From: Patescibacteria group bacterium
Lineage (GTDB): Bacteria; Patescibacteriota; Minisyncoccia; Phycocordibacterales; SBAW01
Assembly (NCBI GenBank): GCA_019752125.1
Contig: JAIEMM010000002.1
Coordinates: 3,062-67,061 of the forward strand
Direction of reading: 5' to 3'
Length of the DNA: 64,000 nucleotides
Positions 7,130-42,383 of this stretch are shown in pieces. The position numbers and the translations under genes were made by a program. The notes under the pieces were generated by a model that saw only the letters and a list, made by a program, of their open reading frames with translations, was not told the DNA's origin and did not search any database. Numbering within the stretch: the stretch's first letter is position 1; each line of letters starts with the position of its first letter.

Positions 7130-7573
7130 ATGAAATATACAGATTTACTTAAAACAGAACGCCCTTGCCCTTTTGATAATCCCAAACAGGAGGACGTTGT
7201 GTCTGAAAATGAAACAGCATACCTTACGTATGCCCTTGCCGCATATCATATTGACCAATTGCTCGTAATACCGAAACGTCATGTTACCCATTTTGACGAT
7301 ATGACAGAGGCTGAACTAGCAGACTGCCATGCGCTCCAAAAACTCGGGTGGCATATACTACGAGAATTAGGCCATAGCGGAGTGAGTTTTCTGCTTCGCG
7401 AAGGAGAGTCGACCGGCAAAAGCATACCGCACCTACATTACAATTTGATGCCTGACACCAAACTCGGCTATATGGCTCCAGGAGCTAAAGAGGAACGCAA
7501 CGTGATGAACGCGGAAGAAGTTGCGGCTACTATGGCACGACTTAGAGACGGTTTGGCCAGACTCCCTCAATAA
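7130..7573 (+). CDS. HIT family nucleotide hydrolase/transferase
   Basis: HIT-like histidine triad variant IPHLHYNLMP at the C-terminus; size and layout of HIT proteins. Confidence 0.55.
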   Translation: MKYTDLLKTERPCPFDNPKQEDVVSENETAYLTYALAAYHIDQLLVIPKRHVTHFDDMTEAELADCHALQKLGWHILRELGHSGVSFLLREGESTGKSIPHLHYNLMPDTKLGYMAPGAKEERNVMNAEEVAATMARLRDGLARLPQ

Positions 7574-10077: not shown

Positions 10078-12981
10078 ATGGCAGTGACCCAAAAGATCAA
10101 GAAGCGCAACGGAGAGATCGTCGATTTCCATCCAGACAAAATCACCATAGCGGTGCAAAAAGCCTTCGCGGCGACGCTCGGCGACAGCCACGAAGCTGAC
10201 TCAAAAGACATCACTCGCGTTGTCGCTGAAAGTATTGATCTTCAGTACGGCAACACTGCCTTTATTCCAAGCGTCGAGGCAATCCAAGACCTTGTAGAAA
10301 CCGCACTTATGGTCCGCAACTATTTCTCAGTTGCGAAAAACTACATTATTTATCGGTACGAACACGATAAAGCGCGCCAGGAGAAGAAAGAAGAGATCGC
10401 AGAAAAGATAAATGAAAATTCTCTTCTTATCGTAAAGCGCGATGGCCGCCAAGAGCAGTTTAATGACAGCAAACTCCGCGCAACCCTTGTGCGCGCAGCC
10501 GAAGGGTATGAATCTATTCTTGACGCAGACTTAATCGTGGCAAAAGTTCGCCAGGAAATGTATGAGGGGATGAAAACAAAAGACATCCAGGACGTACTTA
10601 TTATGGTTACTCGCTCATTGATTGAACGCGATCCTGCGTATTCAAACATCGCCGCACGTCTGTTGCTCCAAACTATGTACCGAGAAGTGCTCGGCGATAT
10701 TGATTTCACCAACTTCGAAGCAGAGTACCGCGCTTCATTTGTAAAAGCGATTACTCGCGGTGTTGAAATCGGCCAGTTTGACCCCCGCATGATGGAATTT
10801 GATCTTAAGTCTTTGGCTGACGCTCTTATCCTTGAGCGCGATAATGATTTCAAGTATCTCGGTCTTCAAACTTTGCAGTCAAACTACCTTTCTAAGGAGC
10901 ACGGTAGCCGCAAACTTCTCGAGACTCCGCAGATTTTCTGGATGCGCGTTGCAATGGGCTGTGCGTTGGCAGAAAAAACTCAGGAAGAACGCAGCGCACA
11001 GGCGGTCGAATTCTACGAGATTATGTCGTCAATGTATTACACGCCATCATCTCCTACCCTCTACCACGCAGGGCTCAAACTTGCGCAACTTTCATCATGC
11101 TTCCTTTCAACTGTTCCTGACGATCTCCATTCAATCTTTAAAGAGTATTCAAACGGTGCGCAGTTGCTTAAATATGCGGGTGGCCTTGGTGTCGACTGGA
11201 CCCCTGTCCGCGCCACAGGCTCACTCGTAAAGGCAACTGGTGTTGAAAGCCAAGGCGTCATTCCATTCCTTAAGATCGCCAATGATGTCACCATTTCTAT
11301 CAACCGCTCTGGCCGCCGCCGTGGTGCTGCTGCTGTGTATCTCGAATATTGGCACGCAGATATAGAAGACTTTATAGAGCTCCGTAAGAACACCGGTGAC
11401 GAACGCCGCCGTGCTCATGACCTCAACACCGCAACATGGATTCCAGACCTCTTTATGAAGCGCCTTGCGGAAGACGGCTACTGGTCCCTCTTCTCCCCTT
11501 CAGATGTCCCTGATCTCCACGACCTCTACGGCCGCAAATTTGACGAAGCGTATATAAAATATGAGAAATTGGGCGAAGAAGGAAAACTCGGTATGTACCG
11601 CAAGATCCGCGCCGCTGACCTCTGGAAGAAGCACCTCACCATGCTCTTTGAGTCTGGCCACCCATGGGTTACCTGGAAAGACCCTTCCAACGTCCGCTCA
11701 CCTCAAGACCACGTCGGTGTTGTTCACTCCTCAAATCTCTGCACAGAAATTACGCTCAACACATCGGCAACGGAAACCGCAGTCTGCAACCTCGGCAGCA
11801 TCAACATGGCAAAATTTGTTGAAAACGGTACATTCAACCGCGAACAAGTAGCTCGAGTCATCCCAGTTGCGATGCGCATGCTCGACAATGTGATAGACGT
11901 TAACTTCTACCCTACTGAAGAAACAAAGCGTTCTAACATGCGCCACCGCCCAGTAGGTCTTGGACTCCGCGGTTTGCAAGATGCGCTCTACAAACTCAAT
12001 ATCAACTTCGACTCAGATGAAGCTGTGCGTTTCTCTGACGAGTCGATGGAAGCAATCGCGTACCATGCAATCCTCGCCTCTGCATTGCTCGCAAAAGAGC
12101 GCGGCACCTACGAAACATACAAGGGCAGCAAGTGGGACCGCGGCATTCTCCCACAAGACACGCTCGCTTTGCTTGAGCAGGAACGTGGAGTCAAGATCGA
12201 CGTACCTCGCCACGAAACACTTAATTGGCAGCTTGTGCGAGAAGCTGTTCGTACCTGGGGTATGCGCAACTCAAATACGATGGCGAACGCGCCAACAGCA
12301 TCAACTGCAAACATTGCCGGCTGCTACCCAACCATCGAACCTATCTACAAAAACCTCTACGTGAAGAGCAACATGGCAGGCGACTTTATGGTTGTAAACG
12401 AATTCCTTGTTGAAGACTTGAAGAGCGTAGGTCTGTGGAACGCTGACATGCTCGAGAAAATCAAATTCTACGACGGATCGATCCAGGACATCATGGAAAT
12501 ACCTCAAGCAATGCGCGAGAAGTATAAAGAAGCATTTGAAATTGAATCTCAGTGGCTTATCAAAGCCGCAGCCTACCGTGGCCGCTGGATAGATCAGTCA
12601 CAATCGCTCAACATCTTCTATGGCGGAACTTCAGGACGTGTACTTTCAGACATCTACCAATACGCATGGTCACTTGGCCTTAAGACTACCTACTACCTCC
12701 GCACATTGGGCGCATCTCGTGTTGAAAAGTCGACCGTTAACCTGGCAAAGTTCGGCGGCACCTCAAAACAAGATGCTGCAGGAGCAACATCTGGCGCAGT
12801 GCCGTCGGCAATGGTCGTAGAAGAAACTGTTACTACCACTACCACAGTAGAAGTCTTGTCGCAGGCCGCTCCAGTTCTATCCCCTATATCAGCTGGCATA
12901 CCTCAATTTTCAACAGAAAAGCCTGTAGTGCGTGGCAAAGTTGAAATACTAGGCGAGGTGTGCGAAAGTTGTTCGGCGTAA
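10078..12981 (+). CDS. nrdA: ribonucleotide reductase class I alpha subunit
   Basis: N-terminal ATP-cone, conserved SNLCTEI active-site segment and C-terminal Cys pair (CESCSA). Followed by nrdB. Confidence 0.85.
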   Translation: MAVTQKIKKRNGEIVDFHPDKITIAVQKAFAATLGDSHEADSKDITRVVAESIDLQYGNTAFIPSVEAIQDLVETALMVRNYFSVAKNYIIYRYEHDKARQEKKEEIAEKINENSLLIVKRDGRQEQFNDSKLRATLVRAAEGYESILDADLIVAKVRQEMYEGMKTKDIQDVLIMVTRSLIERDPAYSNIAARLLLQTMYREVLGDIDFTNFEAEYRASFVKAITRGVEIGQFDPRMMEFDLKSLADALILERDNDFKYLGLQTLQSNYLSKEHGSRKLLETPQIFWMRVAMGCALAEKTQEERSAQAVEFYEIMSSMYYTPSSPTLYHAGLKLAQLSSCFLSTVPDDLHSIFKEYSNGAQLLKYAGGLGVDWTPVRATGSLVKATGVESQGVIPFLKIANDVTISINRSGRRRGAAAVYLEYWHADIEDFIELRKNTGDERRRAHDLNTATWIPDLFMKRLAEDGYWSLFSPSDVPDLHDLYGRKFDEAYIKYEKLGEEGKLGMYRKIRAADLWKKHLTMLFESGHPWVTWKDPSNVRSPQDHVGVVHSSNLCTEITLNTSATETAVCNLGSINMAKFVENGTFNREQVARVIPVAMRMLDNVIDVNFYPTEETKRSNMRHRPVGLGLRGLQDALYKLNINFDSDEAVRFSDESMEAIAYHAILASALLAKERGTYETYKGSKWDRGILPQDTLALLEQERGVKIDVPRHETLNWQLVREAVRTWGMRNSNTMANAPTASTANIAGCYPTIEPIYKNLYVKSNMAGDFMVVNEFLVEDLKSVGLWNADMLEKIKFYDGSIQDIMEIPQAMREKYKEAFEIESQWLIKAAAYRGRWIDQSQSLNIFYGGTSGRVLSDIYQYAWSLGLKTTYYLRTLGASRVEKSTVNLAKFGGTSKQDAAGATSGAVPSAMVVEETVTTTTTVEVLSQAAPVLSPISAGIPQFSTEKPVVRGKVEILGEVCESCSA

Positions 12982-23986: not shown

Positions 23987-30880
<6,894 letters not shown>

Positions 30881-36623: not shown

Positions 36624-38825
36624 TTATTTTGCTACTGCGAGAGCTTCTTCAAATTTGACGGAGAGAAGTTTAGAAACTCCGTCAGAGCCCATAGTGATGC
36701 CATAGAGAACGCCAGCGCGGGACATAGTTTCTCGGTTGTGGGTGATCAAAATAAGCTGAGATTTTTCTGCCAAGCTCTCGATCATGTCGCCATAGCGGCG
36801 TGAGTTTGCTTCGTCGAGCGCAGCTTCTGTTTCATCAAGAATAAGGAATGGCGGCGGGTTTACCTGCGACATTGCAAAGATAAGTGCGATAGATGTAAGC
36901 GCGCGTTCACCACCTGAAAGCATGTGGAGGCCTTTGATGCGCTTGTGTGGAAGCGAAATACTAATTTCAACCCCAGCTTCAACCTCTTCTTGTTCCTCAT
37001 CTTCTTCATTACCTGAAGTTTCTCTCACCAACTGGAGCGCCGCAGTACCACCCCCAAACATAAGTTTGAAGAAACGGTCGAATTCCGTATTTATTTTATT
37101 CACACCTTCTTCAAAACGCACCTGCAGAGTTTGTGTAAGTTCAACAATCAACTGATTCAACGACTCTGTTGAAGCCTCTAAATCCATAAGTTCACGTGCC
37201 AAAAACGCATCTCGGTCTGAAGTTTCCTGGTGCTCTTTGAGCACCTCTGAAGAATTGCCCGCGCCAAGCTCTTCGAGTCGGATTTTCATTCGCTCTAGTT
37301 TTCGTCTACGTTCTTCCTGAACCATGCGTGGTTCATCAGCTACAGCCGCATCCGACAAAAACTCTCCCGCTTCATCACGCAGTACATGTTCTGCGTATGC
37401 ACCAACTTCACGCCCGAGCAACATGGCAGCGTCACCCACCTCACGTTTAAATTGCTCTGTATCACGGCCAAGAATTTCTTCACGGGCGCGTAAGCGAGCC
37501 AGGGTTGTTTCCAATTCACTTCGGCGTGCCATCGCAGAAAAGAGTTCGCGCTCAGCTTCACGATTTGCATCTTTTTCATTCTCAATTTTTGAACGCAGTT
37601 CTTTTACCGCCACCTCAATACGCTCTTGTTCTGCGCGCAACACACTGAGCTCGTGTTCAAGCTGTTGCTTGCGATTCTTAAGATCTTCAAGCGAAAGCCC
37701 TGGCGCCTCTTCTTTGTGTTGAATACGGTTTAAAAATTCTTTTGCAAATGAAACAAGAGCCAAGAGACGCTGCTTGACCTGCTCGCCATCAAGAGAAAGT
37801 AAGTCCCCGAGCCCGCGCTCTATATGCTCTGCAAATTCACGTACCTGTATGCCTGGCACAGAATCCTGCACCGTCTTTGCGATACGCTCATGGGCCTGCA
37901 TCTCACCCTCAAGACGCCCAATGTCACGCACCAAAGACGCTTCATGGGCTGCAACTTTACGTCCCGCACTTTCAAGTTCCATCAATTCGGACGCACCGCT
38001 GTCTCCTTGCTTCTTTGCGACTTCGCTACGGAGATGTGAGATTAGGGTTTCAAGTTTTGTGTATTCTGCTACCGGTGGTTCTTTTTCTTCTGCAAGCATT
38101 CCGCCCGCAACGGTTAGGTATACATGTTCACGTTTAAAATATTCGAGATATTGCTCTACCGTATCGTGACGTAGTTTTTCTGACTGTTCGATCTTCTTTA
38201 CCTGATTCTGTAAAAAGCGTAAGTGTGGCGCAAGTTCACGACGTAGACTTTCTACCTCTCGCATGTTTTCCGCAGTCTTTTCTAACTTTTTCTCTGCCTC
38301 TTCTTTTTTATACAAATACGCAGTAAGACCGAGTGCGTCTTCAAGCATCTCGCGACGTTCACGCGACGTTGATGAAAGAATGCGGTCTGCTTCGCCCTGC
38401 GAAATAATATGGTGGCCGGACGCGCCAATATTTGCCTGGCTCAAAAGTTCTGAAATGTCACGCAGACGTACCTGGCTGCCGTTAAGCAAATAGTCGTTGC
38501 CGCCATCGCGATGCACAACACGCTCAAGTGTTACTTCATCAAAATCTACATTGAGCGCTCTGTCTGTGTTATCAAACGTGAGTTTAACCGATGCACGACC
38601 GCCACGAGGTACCGCGGCCGAGCCGTTCCAAATCATGTCTTCGCCGCGCTTGCCACGCATAGACTTCATCGACTGCTCGCCGAGCACAAAACGGAAGGAT
38701 TCTGCAATATTACTTTTGCCTGAACCATTAGGACCGACAATAGCCGTAATCGCAGAGGCAAATTGCAACTCCGTTTTTCGTGCAAACGACTTAAACCCCG
38801 CCAGTTCTATCGACTTCAACCGCAT
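36624..38825 (-). CDS. smc: SMC-family chromosome segregation ATPase (short, 733 aa)
   Basis: N-terminal Walker A head FKSFA...VGPNGSGKSNI...FVLGEQS, C-terminal signature LSGGERALTSIAL and Walker B LILDETEAALD. The coiled-coil middle is much shorter than canonical SMC. Confidence 0.75.
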   Translation of the reverse strand: MRLKSIELAGFKSFARKTELQFASAITAIVGPNGSGKSNIAESFRFVLGEQSMKSMRGKRGEDMIWNGSAAVPRGGRASVKLTFDNTDRALNVDFDEVTLERVVHRDGGNDYLLNGSQVRLRDISELLSQANIGASGHHIISQGEADRILSSTSRERREMLEDALGLTAYLYKKEEAEKKLEKTAENMREVESLRRELAPHLRFLQNQVKKIEQSEKLRHDTVEQYLEYFKREHVYLTVAGGMLAEEKEPPVAEYTKLETLISHLRSEVAKKQGDSGASELMELESAGRKVAAHEASLVRDIGRLEGEMQAHERIAKTVQDSVPGIQVREFAEHIERGLGDLLSLDGEQVKQRLLALVSFAKEFLNRIQHKEEAPGLSLEDLKNRKQQLEHELSVLRAEQERIEVAVKELRSKIENEKDANREAERELFSAMARRSELETTLARLRAREEILGRDTEQFKREVGDAAMLLGREVGAYAEHVLRDEAGEFLSDAAVADEPRMVQEERRRKLERMKIRLEELGAGNSSEVLKEHQETSDRDAFLARELMDLEASTESLNQLIVELTQTLQVRFEEGVNKINTEFDRFFKLMFGGGTAALQLVRETSGNEEDEEQEEVEAGVEISISLPHKRIKGLHMLSGGERALTSIALIFAMSQVNPPPFLILDETEAALDEANSRRYGDMIESLAEKSQLILITHNRETMSRAGVLYGITMGSDGVSKLLSVKFEEALAVAK

Positions 38826-38892: not shown

Positions 38893-38918
38893 AAACAGTC
38901 CCATATATGGGACTGTTT
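38893..38918. repeat. AGTCCCATATATGGGACT-family perfect palindrome (26 nt) abutting the stop codon of the TrpR-like gene
   Basis: aaacagtcccatat|atgggactgttt. Lies between the smc start and the TrpR-like gene end. Confidence 0.7.
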
Positions 38919-39376
38919 TATTTCTTCGGTTTACGTTTAGTTGGTGGATATATTGGCAACGACTCACCTTTCGGAGCTGGAAGAAATAAGTAATACAAAG
39001 GATATTTTTTCTTCAATCTATATGCCAAACTCGTTGCATATAAACGCTTTTGTGTTCTCTTTTTTAACTCCTTTTCAATTCCAGTAATTACGTGCTCATA
39101 GCCAAATATCTGGTCGTCGAGCCATCTTTGAACTCGACTTACAGTTGTTTTCCCGACACGCATTCGTCTTTGAATTGCATCGTATGATTCTCCAGCAAGA
39201 AGAAGCCGAGCGATAATAATGCGTCTTCCAAGCATAATTCGTTCGCTCTGAGTTAAAAGTTCTTTTAGAAAGAGTTTTGTCACTTCCCTTCCTTTCAACA
39301 CACTCGTAGCCGTATACAATGTATCGAGTGTGACTATGATTTCCTGTTTTGTAAGATCGTCAATTTTTCGTTTCAT
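38918..39376 (-). CDS. TrpR-like YerC/YecD family DNA-binding protein
   Basis: KELLTQSERIMLGRRIIIARLLLAGESYDAIQRRMRVGKTTVSRVQRWL matches the Trp-repressor-like HTH (YerC/YecD). Basic C-terminal tail. The gene is bracketed by the same palindrome on both sides. Confidence 0.6.
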   Translation of the reverse strand: MKRKIDDLTKQEIIVTLDTLYTATSVLKGREVTKLFLKELLTQSERIMLGRRIIIARLLLAGESYDAIQRRMRVGKTTVSRVQRWLDDQIFGYEHVITGIEKELKKRTQKRLYATSLAYRLKKKYPLYYLFLPAPKGESLPIYPPTKRKPKK

Positions 39377-39523: not shown

Positions 39524-39805
39524 CTACCCCTTCCACCCAAGCTGGGTCAGATTCCTGATCAAAGTGCCAGTAGGGGCGCACCGAACTTCAGGGCCGAAGA
39601 ACTCGAATGTACCGCCAGGGCGCTCGTCCGTATAGAGGACCTTGAACCGTCCGTCTTTCTGAACGAGCTCGATGGCAATCCAGCTGCCGCGCACATCCCA
39701 CTTCACATAGTAGCGATTGCCTTGGAACGGGCCCGTCCGGAAGCAACGCCCCGGCTCGATTTCATCGAAACTTTTAGTTTCCGGCTTCTTTACAGCCACT
39801 GCCAT
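39524..39805 (-). CDS. 93-aa GC-rich ORFan protein
   Basis: About 60% GC. SD aaaaggag 8 nt upstream of the ATG. Minus-strand terminator hairpin ggccgcagt...actgcggcc plus T-run at about 39478-39520. Confidence 0.4.
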   Translation of the reverse strand: MAVAVKKPETKSFDEIEPGRCFRTGPFQGNRYYVKWDVRGSWIAIELVQKDGRFKVLYTDERPGGTFEFFGPEVRCAPTGTLIRNLTQLGWKG

Positions 39806-39844: not shown

Positions 39845-40537
39845 TTACCAACCCTTAGCGTCGAGGGCGGCGCGAGCTGCAGCTTGTTCCGCATCTTGTT
39901 TAGAACGGCCTTCGCCTTGAGCCAGCATTGCACTGCTTGCGTATACCCCAACAAGGAAGTGTTTATCGTGGTCTGGGCCAGTCTCTTTTATGACAGAGTA
40001 GTGTGGTGTCATTCCTTCATGCTCCTGCACTTTTTCTTGAAGCGTTGATTTTGCATCCTGCCATAGACGGTCTTTGATGATTATGTCCATCTTTGGGAAT
40101 ACGTGGTCGGTGATGAATTTTTTCGCTGCATCATACCCAAGGTCCAAATAAATGGCACCGACAACCGCCTCGAATGCATTTGCCAACAATATTTGTCGTG
40201 CACGACCAGTATCTTTTGCCTCTCCTTTTGAAAGCAAGAGATAGTCGTTCATCCCAATAGAGGCGGCAATATCTGAAAGCGTCACAGCATTTACCAGTGC
40301 CGCGCGATATGCAGTGAGGTCACCTTCGTGTTTGTCCGGATATGTCGTATAGAGAAAATGCGTTGACACAAGTTCAAGCACGGCGTCGCCTAAAAACTCG
40401 AGACGCTCATTGTGCCCCAAGTCATACCCTCGGTGTTCGTTTAAATACGAACGATGTGTAAAAGCCTGCCGGAGCAGATTTGCGTCATTAAATGTAAAAC
40501 CTATCTTTTCTTCGAATGACTGAAAGTCTTTGTCCAT
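39845..40537 (-). CDS. rnc: ribonuclease III
   Basis: RNase III signature ERLEFLGDAVLEL and C-terminal dsRBD. Confidence 0.85.
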   Translation of the reverse strand: MDKDFQSFEEKIGFTFNDANLLRQAFTHRSYLNEHRGYDLGHNERLEFLGDAVLELVSTHFLYTTYPDKHEGDLTAYRAALVNAVTLSDIAASIGMNDYLLLSKGEAKDTGRARQILLANAFEAVVGAIYLDLGYDAAKKFITDHVFPKMDIIIKDRLWQDAKSTLQEKVQEHEGMTPHYSVIKETGPDHDKHFLVGVYASSAMLAQGEGRSKQDAEQAAARAALDAKGW

Positions 40538-40546
40538 GTGTCTGTC

Positions 40547-41461
40547 TTATTTTTTTACTTGGTTTTGGATGGCTTGCAGCGCCTTCGTTATGAGGGGCAA
40601 CATATCATCATAAAAGTTCAGCTCGAGCGCATCCTGCATACGGAACCATCGAGCGTCGTCGAGGCCGCCAGTCTGTTTGAGCGATATCTCTCCGTACGGT
40701 GCTTCTGCAAGAAAGTATGTAACATGCTTGCGCTTCTTACCAGTCTTTGGGTCTGAGGCAACGTATTCGTTCTCGCCCACTTTTTCAATAAGCTTGATAT
40801 CAAGCCCCATCTCTTCTTTTATTTCGCGAATGGTTCCCTCTTCAACAGTTTCGTTGGCAAACTCGGGCTTATCGCCTATTTTGCCCTTAGAGAGAGTCCA
40901 GTGGCCAAATATATCGTGCACAAGCGCAAGATATATATCTCCTTGGTGTCGTCCAAATACGATAGCGCCACCTAGATGCTGAACGGGTAGTTCTGCATAC
41001 GGCACATCTTTTTTCTTTTTTGAAACTTCATCCTTACCCGGCTCGCCCAACTCTTTATAAACGGCACCGAGCACACCGTTGACAAACCTGCCGCTGTTTT
41101 CACCACCGAAGTTCTTTGCAAGTTCAATTGCTTCGTTGATAGCGACTTTTGCTGGCACCTTTTCACGGTCAGCAAATAAAAGTTCGTATAGACCTAGACG
41201 GAGTACGTTTCTGTCTACAAGTGCTATACGGTCGAGCGGCCATTCAGGGGCAGCTTTTTCAATCACTAAATCTAAATCGGCGCGGCGGTCTATAACACCC
41301 TGAAACAACTCCTCCATAAATGGAAGGTCGCCGGCGCCTGATGCAAATTCGCCTGCGTTTCTTTCAAGTGCCCCATCAAGAGCCTCTTTATTAGAATCAC
41401 GGAAATCCCATTCAAAGAGAGTTTGGAGGACGACTGATCGTGATAGATGTCTATTTGCCAT
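40547..41461 (-). CDS. nusB: NusB antitermination factor fused to a C-terminal Nudix hydrolase domain
   Basis: The N-terminal ~140 aa are NusB-like (MANRHLSRSVVLQTLFEWDF ...). The C-terminal ~150 aa carry a Nudix box GKIGDKPEFANETVEEGTIREIKEEMGL (Gx5Ex7REUxEExGU). Confidence 0.7.
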   Translation of the reverse strand: MANRHLSRSVVLQTLFEWDFRDSNKEALDGALERNAGEFASGAGDLPFMEELFQGVIDRRADLDLVIEKAAPEWPLDRIALVDRNVLRLGLYELLFADREKVPAKVAINEAIELAKNFGGENSGRFVNGVLGAVYKELGEPGKDEVSKKKKDVPYAELPVQHLGGAIVFGRHQGDIYLALVHDIFGHWTLSKGKIGDKPEFANETVEEGTIREIKEEMGLDIKLIEKVGENEYVASDPKTGKKRKHVTYFLAEAPYGEISLKQTGGLDDARWFRMQDALELNFYDDMLPLITKALQAIQNQVKK

Positions 41462-41536: not shown

Positions 41537-41761
41537 TTACTTGCTTGCCTCGCTCTTGCTTCCAGCCTTTGCTGCCTTGCGTTTTGCCTTAGCGGCAACG
41601 TCGATGACAACACGTCCACGGTAGCGACCGCACTGTGCACATGCGCGGTGCGATACGCGAACAGCTCCACACTCGCATTTAGCGAGCGTCTTAGCTACAA
41701 GCGCATGGTGCGAACGGCGGTTTGCCGTGTGCGCGCGCGTATGTCTCATTCGGACTACCAT
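41537..41761 (-). CDS. rpmF: 50S ribosomal protein L32 with Lys/Ala-rich C-terminal tail
   Basis: MRHTRAHTANRRSHHAL plus a CxC...CxxC zinc ribbon (CECG...CAQCG). Exact start (M at 41761 or 41749) is uncertain. Confidence 0.75.
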   Translation of the reverse strand: MVVRMRHTRAHTANRRSHHALVAKTLAKCECGAVRVSHRACAQCGRYRGRVVIDVAAKAKRKAAKAGSKSEASK

Positions 41762-41783
41762 GCCGCTACCATACCAAATAAGG

Positions 41784-42383
41784 TCAAAAATGACAATACG
41801 TCCTTCTGTGTACTTCGGAGATTCCAACGCGCGCGATGATATCCCGATGTCTCTTCGTCCCGTAGCCTTTATGGATTTCGAATCCGTATTCTGGGTACTG
41901 TTTGCCCAACCTGCACATCAAACGATCTCTCGAAACTTTTGCAACAATGGAGGCTAGTGAAATAATTGGCTCTGTCGCGTCGCCTCTAATAATGGTTTGT
42001 TGACTATATTCTTCTGGCGCAGAAAGTAATCCATCGAGTAGCACGTGGACGCCTTTTGGTTTTGGAGCAAGAGAACGGACGCCGCTAAAAATTCCCTTTC
42101 TTACAACTTTAGTAATACCGATGTCATCGATCATCGTATGTGATCCGAAGCGCACGCAAAAATTTATAGTTCCTGCTTTCTTTAACTCAACAGCAATTTC
42201 ATACAACTCCTCCCTTTTCTTTTCAGTAAGTTGCTTTGAATCGTTGATTCCAGGGAAGGCTTTTTTGATATTAAAACCAACAGGGACTGAGACAATTCCT
42301 ACAGAAACTGGCCCCGCCAATGGCCCCCTGCCCGCTTCATCCACCCCAACAAGAATCTTTTTCACCTCTAGAGTATAATCCAA
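41784..42383 (-). CDS. rnhB: ribonuclease HII
   Basis: ILVGVDEAGRGPLAGPV catalytic N-terminus. Confidence 0.85.
   Translation of the reverse strand: MDYTLEVKKILVGVDEAGRGPLAGPVSVGIVSVPVGFNIKKAFPGINDSKQLTEKKREELYEIAVELKKAGTINFCVRFGSHTMIDDIGITKVVRKGIFSGVRSLAPKPKGVHVLLDGLLSAPEEYSQQTIIRGDATEPIISLASIVAKVSRDRLMCRLGKQYPEYGFEIHKGYGTKRHRDIIARVGISEVHRRTYCHF

Follow-up and report, generated by a model that had tools for sequence, protein, structure and literature searches.

A NusB protein joined to an Ap4A-hydrolase-type Nudix domain in Parcubacteria-type Patescibacteria

One feature of the 64-kb stretch of DNA analysed here (the window) is a single 304-aa open reading frame that begins as the transcription factor NusB, continues through a disordered, lysine-rich linker and ends as a Nudix domain (Table 1). 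This raises the question as to whether such a fusion is real and, if it is, what a Nudix domain contributes to an antitermination factor. NusB is a core and well-studied bacterial protein, and we found no description of it with an enzyme or sensor domain; the literature on NusB with Nudix, and on NusB in Patescibacteria, CPR or Parcubacteria, likewise yielded no description of the fusion. A protein from Candidatus Adlerbacteria bacterium RIFOXYC1_FULL_48_26 is 98% identical to the window protein and is called "NusB" by NCBI. Because the annotation says just that, the fusion is invisible to users of public records.

The preliminary description of this DNA had described the frame as a fusion of the antitermination factor NusB with a Nudix domain, and the domain search that it proposed bears this out. 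Both domains were matched in the one frame, NusB (PF01029) at aa 7-136 (E 1.5e-34, 119.7 bits) and NUDIX (PF00293) at aa 167-289 (E 4.2e-13, 49.9 bits vs a cutoff of 21.1). A sequencing frameshift or mis-assembly could still have merged two neighbouring genes, and the linker DNA does contain A-rich runs (KKKK, about 41010-41022, + strand) that are error-prone in principle. We looked for signs of such an artefact and saw none. A genome scan for the distribution of the fusion matched at least 594 species, a lower bound for the subclade around the window protein, since the scan was seeded by one peptide pattern (VHD[IV]FG[YH]W) and is biased to its relatives. Among the 80 species-representative loci examined from these, NusB and Nudix share one open frame in all 80, with linker sequences that differ among loci, and neither a split gene nor a Nudix-less form occurs. 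Each of the 120 best database clusters, which are 76-98% identical and come from many independent assemblies, likewise contains both domains, and the fusion recurs in more than 40 distinct clusters at 50% identity. Because the in-frame fusion is found across all these loci and independently assembled clusters, we exclude a frameshift or assembly artefact as vanishingly improbable. All 80 loci come from Parcubacteria-type Patescibacteria, and viral contigs yielded no relatives.

Table 1. The fusion gene, its parts and its neighbours (positions in the window; aa numbering of the encoded protein).
Feature	Position	Strand	Basis and remarks
nusB::nudix fusion gene	40547..41461	minus	304 aa + stop (TAA at 40547-40549), ATG start; ORF list, both Pfam domains
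NusB domain, aa 1-138, all-helical	41048..41461	minus	TIGR01951, PDB matches, Foldseek
Linker, aa 139-159 (GEPGKDEVSKKKKDVPYAELPVQ), Lys-rich	40985..41047	minus	AF2 confidence; conserved within near clade
Nudix domain, aa 160-304, Ap4A/ApnA-hydrolase type	40550..40984	minus	PF00293, PDB matches, Foldseek
Nudix box, aa 193-220, GKIGDKPEFANETVEEGTIREIKEEMGL	40802..40885	minus	G-x10-E204-x7-R212-E213-I-K-E216-E217-M-G219-L220, read from sequence
Lineage-specific insertion, ~5 residues, Nudix-box loop, within aa 198-203 (KPEFAN)	40853..40870	minus	Alignment-dependent borders
rnc (RNase III)	39845..40537	minus	Ribonucleas_3_3, Ribonuclease_3, dsrm (Pfam); starts 9 nt past nusB::nudix stop
rpmF (ribosomal protein L32)	41537..41827	minus	Ribosomal_L32p at aa 28-76; just upstream of fusion
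rnhB (RNase HII)	41784..42383	minus	Pfam RNase_HII; upstream, conserved in most loci
smc, short, 733 aa	36624..38825	minus	SMC_N over aa 3-718; downstream of rnc in most loci

Is the N-terminal half a true NusB? It passes the NCBIfam nusB equivalog (TIGR01951) with 123.8 bits vs a cutoff of 88.35, with aa 4-137 aligned to model positions 2-130 of 131, and NusB sequences in the PDB match it with E values from 1.6e-21 to 2.9e-14. The AF2 model has seven helices within aa 4-138, and Foldseek gives target-normalised TM scores of 0.81-0.87 to Thermotoga and Aquifex NusB (1tzv, 3r2d, 3r2c, 4eya), one of which, 3r2c, is a NusB-NusE-BoxA complex. In the HMMER alignment F16 corresponds to EcY18, D83 to AaE81, F126 to AaF122 and N122 to AaK118/EcD118, positions with established NusE- and BoxA-contact roles (PMC3177189). 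F16, D83 and F126 are invariant in the near-clade alignment and N122 is conserved at 90% or more; an aspartate at the AaE81 position is also seen in Thermotoga NusB. Judged by alignment, the NusE-interface and BoxA-contact residues are thus kept, in line with the NusB-like N-terminal half originally noticed. No second nusB is present elsewhere in the 64-kb window or within 6 kb on either side of the 80 loci. The sequence data suggest that the fusion gene is this lineage's NusB, and its product should function as such.

By sequence and predicted fold, the C-terminal half is a Nudix domain of the Ap4A/ApnA-hydrolase type, not an RppH or NudC. Its best PDB sequence matches are CT771 (E 2.7e-7), Ndx1 (2.8e-5), aq_158 (7.6e-4) and NUDT2 (5e-3). 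Foldseek assigns a probability of 1.00 to many Nudix structures, with ranks 1-13 including 3i7u, 4mpo/4ilq, 1vc8/1vc9, 9cxx and 1ktg together with the NrtR Nudix domain 3gz8, and with a TM of 0.87 to 3i7u, the Aquifex Ap4A hydrolase aq_158. The domain carries a phosphate-binding strand, H187-W188-T189-L190-S191-K192, of the H-W-x3-K form, in which the lysine has been assigned to the P1 phosphate (PMC4734340). Ap4A hydrolases have further been recognised by a stacking Tyr/Phe ~17 residues after the Nudix box and a second Tyr/Phe (PMC2425470). Here Y233, in an N-E-Y-V-A motif aligned to E-N-Y-S-F of CT771, lies at +13 after the box where the rule says +17, and Y284 is aligned to the second aromatic (F in CT771).

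The Nudix box had been called canonical, which is correct for its core and incorrect for its glycine. The quoted peptide does lie at aa 193-220 and the core E204-x7-R212-E213-I-x-E216-E217-x-G219-L220 is intact, so that a check for absent catalytic glutamates, which would have spoken against the original reading, found E204, E213, E216 and E217 all in place. Compared with the consensus GX5EX7REUXEEXGU, the G-x5-E spacing differs: the box glycine stands 10 (G193-x10-E204) or 7 (G196-x7-E204) residues before E204 instead of 5, because of the lineage-specific insertion of ~5 residues. This insertion (pLDDT ~67) is a gap opposite CT771, Ndx1 and most other fused members, and the G-to-R spacing is 19 in 120/120 near-clade clusters vs 14 elsewhere. 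Within the near clade E204, R212, E216 and E217 are invariant, E213 is conserved at 90% or more, and 111 of the 120 clusters keep the full catalytic set. As all catalytic residues are present in this Adlerbacteria-type lineage, the Nudix domain there probably also hydrolyses its ligand.

What might it act on? The preliminary description had suggested that NAD or dpCoA caps, or alarmones such as (p)ppGpp, are removed in the manner of RppH or NudC; as a matter of family membership, this finds no support. The RppH model PRK00714 scores 15.3 bits vs a cutoff of 118 and BsRppH (4jzu) 12.7 bits (E 0.86), while the NudC model NF001299 scores 26.5 bits vs a cutoff of 158, its alignment confined to the generic box region; the nearest relatives are Ap4A/Ap6A hydrolases. 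NADH pyrophosphatases are defined by a SQPWPFPxS-type motif after the Nudix box; direct reading of the 304-aa sequence reveals neither this motif nor an N-terminal NudC zinc domain. A refined form of the original idea is that the domain processes RNA 5' ends catalytically. NusB would dock on BoxA near the leader 5' end and the Nudix domain would make a 5'-monophosphate from a triphosphate or an Np4A/NAD-type cap. This would open the leader to 5'-end-dependent decay or trimming and recycle NusB-NusE, jointly with RNase III. Such an activity in the window lineage is possible by analogy with NUDT2, a Nudix protein of the Ap4A-hydrolase type that trims PPP-RNA to P-RNA (PMC8616924). It would fit the intact catalytic set of the window protein and most near-clade clusters, the conserved rnc 9 nt downstream, and the lysine-rich linker, which could contact RNA. 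Besides the scores well under the RppH and NudC cutoffs, the pattern of catalytic loss described below speaks against it, and we regard this reading as unlikely.

Across the whole fused family, conservation of the catalytic residues and of the ligand pocket is very different. The "RE" glutamate (E213) is absent in 92 of 248 fused proteins (37%), for which the tree implies at least 38 separate changes, and the full R-E-x2-E-E is missing in 105 of the 248. Two tallies of box residues were made, one motif-anchored and one MAFFT-based; in the latter, E213 is conserved at 23-60% and E216 at 54-83% vs 87-100% for the pocket residues (W188 100%, K192 97-99%, Y233 and Y284 87-97%), of which the two tyrosines would correspond to those that stack on adenine in Ap4A hydrolases. 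E217, R212 and E204 are still well conserved across fused proteins. At 50% identity, the box is retained in 6/39 fused vs 22/29 unfused clusters (p = 9e-7). Degenerate boxes are also found in copies at the standard rnc-smc position (loci L082-L084), and the Nudix domain has therefore been kept after catalytic loss. Slow catalysis might persist in some "RK" or "RA" variants, as catalytic-base positions differ among Nudix families. Nevertheless, repeated loss of the "RE" glutamate in orthologous copies with the pocket retained speaks against hydrolysis being what maintains the fusion across the clade, and the hydrolytic role originally envisaged is disfavoured at that level. [quoted passage not shown]

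The gene order rpmF - nusB::nudix - rnc - smc is near-constant in the 80 loci. The gene for RNase III lies directly downstream of the fusion in 79 of them, and likewise in L082-L084, with their degenerate boxes; rpmF is the upstream neighbour in 77 of the 80. In the window, the true rpmF start is probably an internal one (MVVRMRHT, at about 41761). No terminator-like site was found between nusB::nudix and rnc, and the promoter/terminator scan returned only weak consensus matches, near shuffle expectation. An rnc-smc neighbourhood is known in Firmicutes, and the adjacency of rnc to the fusion could be inherited synteny, not functional linkage. Another gene fusion within the window is rpoB-rpoC.

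How are the two halves arranged? Within the linker, pLDDT falls below 50 at aa 140-151 and the pTM of the AF2 model is 0.50. The domains are accordingly not predicted to hold a set position relative to each other; the model suggests two independent domains on a flexible linker. No contact between NusB and Nudix is predicted, so that the model lends coupling no structural support. The Nudix half could then be a housekeeping ApnA/NTP pyrophosphohydrolase that became attached to NusB as genomes were streamlined, is expressed along with it and plays no part at the antitermination complex. Fusions such as rpoB-rpoC show that genes do merge in such genomes, and both fold and pocket match those of free-standing Ap4A hydrolases. 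In an enzymatic passenger, however, one would expect the catalytic residues to be preserved or else the whole domain to decay, whereas here domain and pocket are retained in at least 594 species despite repeated glutamate changes. The box is also kept far less often in fused than in unfused clusters, and the 80 loci hold no split or Nudix-less version. In addition, at least one genome with the fusion has a separate standalone Nudix nearby. We therefore consider an uncoupled passenger quite unlikely. Among free-standing relatives with a canonical box, the closest (P0147) is encoded amid integrase, methylase and Rep_O-like genes, not adjoining nusB, and has no word-sharing relatives in a set of 5.8 billion proteins.

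Alternatively, the Nudix domain could serve the antitermination complex by contacting other proteins or by dimerising, with any ligand irrelevant. The catalytic residues are dispensable in many lineages, as this would allow; an enzyme-fold subunit, SuhB, is known in the E. coli rrn antitermination complex (PMC6614801, PMC6614797), and many Nudix proteins dimerise, CF Im25 among them (PMC2425470). The best-conserved residues (K192, Y233, Y284 and W188), however, line the nucleotide pocket of Ap4A hydrolases (PMC4734340) and mark no obvious separate surface, which makes a purely structural role, in our judgement, decidedly improbable.

The explanation that we favour, and to which we give about an even chance of being right, is that a working NusB has been joined to a tethered module that binds nucleotides or RNA 5' ends at the antitermination complex. 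The NusB half would pair with ribosomal protein S10 (NusE) on BoxA of nascent pre-rRNA and help form the antitermination and rRNA-folding complex, with the flexible lysine-rich tether of ~20 residues keeping the Ap4A-hydrolase-type Nudix domain beside it. The family-wide constant would be a nucleotide-polyphosphate pocket formed by the H-W-T-x-x-K strand, the tyrosine after the box and the second stacking tyrosine. Since this pocket is conserved and the catalytic glutamates are not, the shared job is most likely ligand binding at the NusB complex. We infer the identity of the ligand, its binding at the antitermination complex and an effect of that binding or hydrolysis; the ligand may be adenine-nucleotide-polyphosphate-like, such as a free dinucleoside polyphosphate or an NTP, or the 5' end, with (p)pp or an Np4 cap, of the leader RNA to which NusB is already bound. 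A bolder version, which we put forward tentatively as possible rather than probable, is that NusB of Parcubacteria-type Patescibacteria is a ligand-gated antitermination factor, its pocket reading a nucleotide signal and coupling it to assembly or turnover of NusB-NusE-BoxA, with lineages switching repeatedly between a signal-resetting enzyme and a pure sensor. Candidate signals would be an alarmone of the Ap4A type, the supply of NTPs, or whether the rRNA leader carries a 5'-ppp or an Np4 cap.

These possibilities matter because a whole radiation, at least 594 species-level genomes, has NusB joined to an Ap4A-hydrolase-type Nudix domain and encodes it immediately ahead of RNase III. Should the module bind or process nucleotides or RNA 5' ends at the complex, rRNA transcription and maturation would be tied to the state of nucleotides or alarmones, or to the chemistry of 5' ends, in a manner not known from model bacteria. 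Patescibacteria, which are ultra-small bacteria, scavenge nucleotides from their hosts, and such a coupling is therefore biologically plausible; ligand gating, if true, would add a novel means of regulating rRNA synthesis, and would do so in organisms that rely on hosts for their nucleotides. The fused family also offers a natural series of enzyme-to-sensor transitions in which to study how Nudix pseudo-enzymes arise.

How does the fusion compare with known systems? Classical NusB of E. coli, Aquifex aeolicus and Thermotoga maritima shares the equivalog, the all-helical fold, the NusE aromatic and the BoxA U8-contact residues, but is a stand-alone protein of ~140 aa, whereas the window NusB has a 165-aa C-terminal extension (linker plus Nudix). 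A place between rpmF and rnc, as here, is not known for nusB in model bacteria. RsmB/Sun, the 16S rRNA m5C967 methyltransferase, is a precedent for a NusB-like RNA-binding N-domain ahead of an enzyme domain, in a protein that acts on rRNA; its enzyme domain is a methyltransferase, whereas that of the window protein has the Nudix fold and follows an N-domain that passes the true nusB equivalog. RsmB models do match aa 31-151, with 58.7 bits, well under the RsmB cutoffs of 319-540.

On the Nudix side, the nearest relatives in both sequence and structure are the Ap4A/ApnA hydrolases (aq_158 3i7u, Chlamydia CT771 4ilq/4mpo, Thermus Ndx1 1vc8, human NUDT2 3u53, C. elegans 1ktg), with which the window protein shares the H-W-T-x-x-K-G phosphate-binding strand and, in Y233 and Y284, has candidate counterparts of their two stacking aromatics (PMC4734340, PMC2425470). 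It is unlike them in the fusion to NusB, the 5-residue box-loop insertion and a signature tyrosine at +13 vs about +17, and its fused relatives, unlike these enzymes, have often lost catalytic glutamates. [quoted passage not shown] CF Im25/NUDT21 is a Nudix fold inside an RNA-processing or transcription-coupled machine, and its box, with the second ("RE") and fourth glutamates missing, goes with binding of Ap4A and ATP and no hydrolysis (PMC2425470), the same pattern that many fused NusB::Nudix members may follow; it is, however, eukaryotic, unfused to NusB and distant in sequence, and the window protein keeps all catalytic residues. NrtR joins a Nudix-like effector domain to a gene-expression factor as a ligand sensor (PMC2330246). 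There the partner is a winged-helix DNA-binding repressor sensing ADP-ribose, whereas here it is an RNA-binding antitermination factor with a Nudix domain of the ApnA-hydrolase type. Together, CF Im25 and NrtR are precedents for non-hydrolysing Nudix folds in nucleic-acid machines, and as such they support the reading of the fused domain as a binding module.

The preliminary description had placed a NusB half and a Nudix half in one 304-residue frame, and profile searches bear this out. The domain search that it suggested returns both Pfam families above cut-off, with NusB (PF01029) at residues 7-136 (E 1.5e-34) and NUDIX (PF00293) at residues 167-289 (E 4.2e-13, 49.9 bits, cut-off 21.1), and the protein scores 123.8 bits against TIGR01951, the NCBI nusB equivalog (cut-off 88.35). 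The coordinates reported for this fusion gene, nusB::nudix, were right, with a correction of the strand to minus. A frameshift or assembly artefact has a negligible probability: the same two-domain frame is found in the 120 best database clusters (the near clade; 76-98% identity, from NCBI, JGI, ENA and Logan assemblies), all of ~300 residues with both Pfam domains, and NusB and Nudix share one open frame in 80 of 80 retrieved loci, two of them cut by contig ends. Named cluster members are called only 'NusB' and belong to Candidatus Adlerbacteria, Paceibacterota or Patescibacteria. The closest match, at 98% identity, is Candidatus Adlerbacteria bacterium RIFOXYC1_FULL_48_26 (Parcubacteria group, Patescibacteria), and the window's GC content of 49% fits an Adlerbacteria/Parcubacteria affinity.

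Features of the window discussed in the text
Feature	Coordinates	Strand	Remarks
HIT-family protein (PF01230)	7130-7573	plus	
Ribonucleotide reductase large subunit	10078-12981	plus	two ATP-cone stretches
RpoB-RpoC fusion	23987-30880	minus	single 2297-aa ORF; Pfam domains
SMC homologue	36624-38825	minus	733 aa
Strong hairpin	38893-38918		11-bp stem; between TrpR-like gene and smc
TrpR-like HTH protein	38918-39376	minus	152 aa; between rnc and smc
orf93	39524-39805	minus	93 aa; no Pfam match; between rnc and smc
nusB::nudix ORF	40547..41461	minus	single 304-aa frame; ATG start

The phylogenetic distribution, proposed earlier as a check, proved to be wide. Scanning one genome per GTDB species with a single diagnostic peptide confirmed the fusion in at least 594 stretches; the classified records among these all bear Patescibacteria names (Adler-, Kaiser-, Nomura-, Zambryski-, Taylor- and Campbell-bacteria, Paceibacterota, Minisyncoccia, Parcubacteria), and many are labelled just 'bacterium' or 'uncultured bacterium'. 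With the Nudix half alone as query against 1.84 billion cluster representatives (E <= 1e-3), we found 881 relatives; essentially every full-length match (~280-360 residues) has a complete NusB N-terminus by our own HMM, and these fall into more than 40 distinct 50%-identity clusters, the Nudix halves being as little as ~30% identical. In the 80 loci, the 6 kb on either side of the fusion contain no second nusB, and viral contigs yielded no relatives of it. Many MAGs labelled 'uncultured Candidatus Saccharibacteria' (among them L005, L006 and L008-L010) have a fusion and gene order of the Parcubacteria type, with fused proteins 57-77% identical to that of the window; the labels seem to be generic placeholders and no evidence of the fusion in Saccharibacteria.

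As judged from alignments and an AF2 model (mean pLDDT 79), the N-terminal half is a bona fide NusB. Its seven predicted helices (residues 4-138) superpose at TM 0.81-0.87 on NusB from Thermotoga and Aquifex, the NusB-NusE-BoxA complex among the structures matched. We transferred residue roles from PMC3177189 through HMMER alignments. F16 takes the place of E. coli Y18, a residue buried in the interface with NusE; D83 that of Aquifex E81, which recognises BoxA U8 (the Thermotoga residue is likewise D); F126 that of Aquifex F122, which stacks on U8; and N122 that of Aquifex K118 and E. coli D118, where D118N raises lambda BoxA affinity (PMC3177189). The near clade shows no variation at F16, D83 or F126, and N122 is at least 90% conserved there. 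The Lys-rich linker of ~20 residues is predicted to be disordered (pLDDT below 50 for residues 140-151, pTM 0.50), and the model contains no contact between the NusB and Nudix domains.

Sequence and fold comparisons indicate that the Nudix half is of the Ap4A/ApnA-hydrolase type. The RppH/NudC-like identity first suggested does not hold, since the RppH model gives 15.3 bits (cut-off 118) and the NudC model 26.5 bits (cut-off 158). Sequence matches with solved structures are CT771, Thermus Ndx1 (an Ap6A hydrolase), human NUDT2 and the Ap4A hydrolase of Aquifex. In the Foldseek comparison the Aquifex enzyme comes top (TM 0.87), ahead of CT771, Ndx1, Rv2985 and the Ap4A hydrolases of C. elegans and humans. 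NUDT2 performs RNA 5'-end processing (PMC8616924), which favours a catalysis-centred role as RNA 5'-end pyrophosphohydrolase or decapping enzyme, a reading that we nevertheless regard as improbable. The Nudix box had been called canonical, and its core, E204-x7-R212-E213-I-K-E216-E217-M-G219-L220, is exact, so that the catalytic glutamates are present as the earlier check required; the upstream glycine spacing is off. Within the peptide first quoted (residues 193-220), the glycine lies 10 (G193) or 7 (G196) residues from E204 and not the canonical 5, and alignment with CT771, Ndx1 and other fused members places a ~5-residue insertion in the box loop. This insertion occurs in 120 of 120 near-clade clusters (G-to-R spacing 19 vs. 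14 elsewhere).

Across the fused family, the ligand pocket is more constrained than the catalytic residues. W188, T189, K192, Y233, Y249, W272 and Y284 are 87-100% conserved among fused proteins. The near clade keeps the full catalytic set in 111 of 120 clusters, and the full RE-x2-EE is kept in only 6 of 39 fused 50%-identity clusters vs. 22 of 29 unfused relatives (Fisher p = 9e-7); a divergent fused sample, neighbours of protein P0260, has it in 62 of 116. Among 248 pooled, non-identical fused proteins, the 'RE' glutamate E213 is replaced by K, A, I, V or G in 92, while E216 is missing in 41 and E217 in just 5. Fitch parsimony on an NJ tree made without the box columns counts no fewer than 38 changes at E213 and 26 at E216. 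E53A of E. coli RppH, at the same 'RE' position, is a standard dead mutant. Degenerate boxes (RI..DE, RA..EE, RK..EE) also occur in copies at the standard rnc-smc position, indicating that orthologous copies retain the Nudix domain once catalysis has been lost; a housekeeping hydrolase merely fused to NusB and functionally uncoupled from it is a still less probable account. Good conservation persists at E217, R212 and E204, so some variants may still act as slow enzymes. Locus L083 has a standalone 145-residue NUDIX gene (1751-2188) right behind gyrB, and the fused copy of that genome reads RA..EE.

The minus-strand gene order in the window is rnhB, rpmF (L32), nusB::nudix, rnc, orf93, trpR-like and smc, with dnaE divergent to this string. 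The rnc start lies 9 nt past the fusion stop codon, and a scan of the rpmF/fusion/rnc intervals gave no convincing terminator, which is weak evidence. Among the 80 loci, rnc directly follows the fusion in 79 and rpmF precedes it in 77, with smc after rnc; the divergent members L082-L084 share this arrangement. Firmicutes also show rnc-smc adjacency, and some of the shared gene order may therefore be no more than inheritance. Primary cleavage of pre-rRNA is the work of RNase III. The Nus complex is believed to help pre-rRNA mature (PMC6614801, PMC6614797, on SuhB and the rrn complex), and together these make the pairing of the fusion with rnc functionally sensible. A purely structural, SuhB-like scaffold role is the least probable of the functional accounts weighed here.

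Several other genes and relatives deserve mention. The SMC homologue is unusually short; its SMC_N profile is split over residues 3-718, relatives in L082-L084 have 753-820 residues, and the coiled coil appears much shortened in the fusion-bearing clade. The 2297-residue ORF is a beta-beta' RNA polymerase fusion (Rpb2_1 to Rpb2_7 at residues 30-1058, Rpb1_1 to Rpb1_5 at 1077-2173), short compared with both subunits together. The HIT superfamily includes dinucleoside-polyphosphate and nucleotide-adduct hydrolases, and the window's HIT protein may be relevant to the organism's ApnA metabolism. The window also encodes a ribonucleotide reductase large subunit; Patescibacteria are generally portrayed as relying on nucleotide scavenging. 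A divergent NusB-like::Nudix group (P0260, P0272, P0274, P0275) has a different N-terminus and boxes RA..KE, RA..TE or RA..EE. P0275 (L081 6001-6948, on a 1.70-Mb contig) is flanked by PemK/MazE toxin-antitoxin, AAA_16-TPR, HTH_8 and HTH_3+Dynamin_N proteins, with no rpmF or rnc nearby, and P0383, placed with this group, combines TPR and NusB-like segments without Nudix. The group may represent a paralogous offshoot, possibly with another role. Among free-standing relatives with a canonical box, the nearest to the Nudix domain is P0147 (L085 5001-5453; 150 residues, 40% identity). It lies in a mobile-element-like neighbourhood of integrase-like, Phage_rep_O-like and DNA methylase genes and has no word-sharing relatives in a large protein set. 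Three further matches of the Nudix-half search have unusual architectures: P0189 (291 residues) has two tandem Nudix domains without NusB, P0205 (379 residues) a ~240-residue N-terminus of no known type ahead of Nudix, and P0222 (577 residues) a long N-terminal extension, a partial NusB-like segment and then Nudix.

We put at about even odds that, at the NusB-NusE-BoxA complex, the Nudix module serves to bind a ligand of the adenine-nucleotide-polyphosphate type. The Lys-rich tether would hold the Nudix domain beside that complex, where its predicted ligand is either free ApnA or NTP or the leader RNA bound by NusB, at its 5'-(p)pp or Np4-capped end; with the catalytic set complete in the window lineage, the ligand would probably also be hydrolysed there. 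More tentatively, NusB could be ligand-gated and so couple rRNA antitermination to a signal from nucleotides or from the 5' end. We found no literature on a NusB-Nudix fusion, and public records name the fused proteins just NusB. Both halves come from known families; the novelty lies in their being joined, in the fixation of the fusion across the clade and in its enzyme-to-binder pattern. In Ap4A hydrolases a His/Trp/Lys strand grips the P1 phosphate and two aromatics sandwich the adenine (PMC4734340), and the window Nudix half has a counterpart of the strand in H187-W188-T189-x-x-K192, while Y233 and Y284 align with the aromatic pair. Y233 stands at +13 from the box rather than at the ~17 residues of the Tyr/Phe rule (PMC2425470), but lies within a homologous N-E-Y-V-A motif. 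The Nudix domain of NrtR, the effector sensor of that transcription factor (PMC2330246), is also among the Foldseek matches. CF Im25, part of an RNA-processing machine, is without the second ('RE') and fourth box glutamates and binds Ap4A and ATP with no hydrolysis (PMC2425470); the 'RE' glutamate is likewise absent from many fused relatives, whereas the window protein keeps E213.
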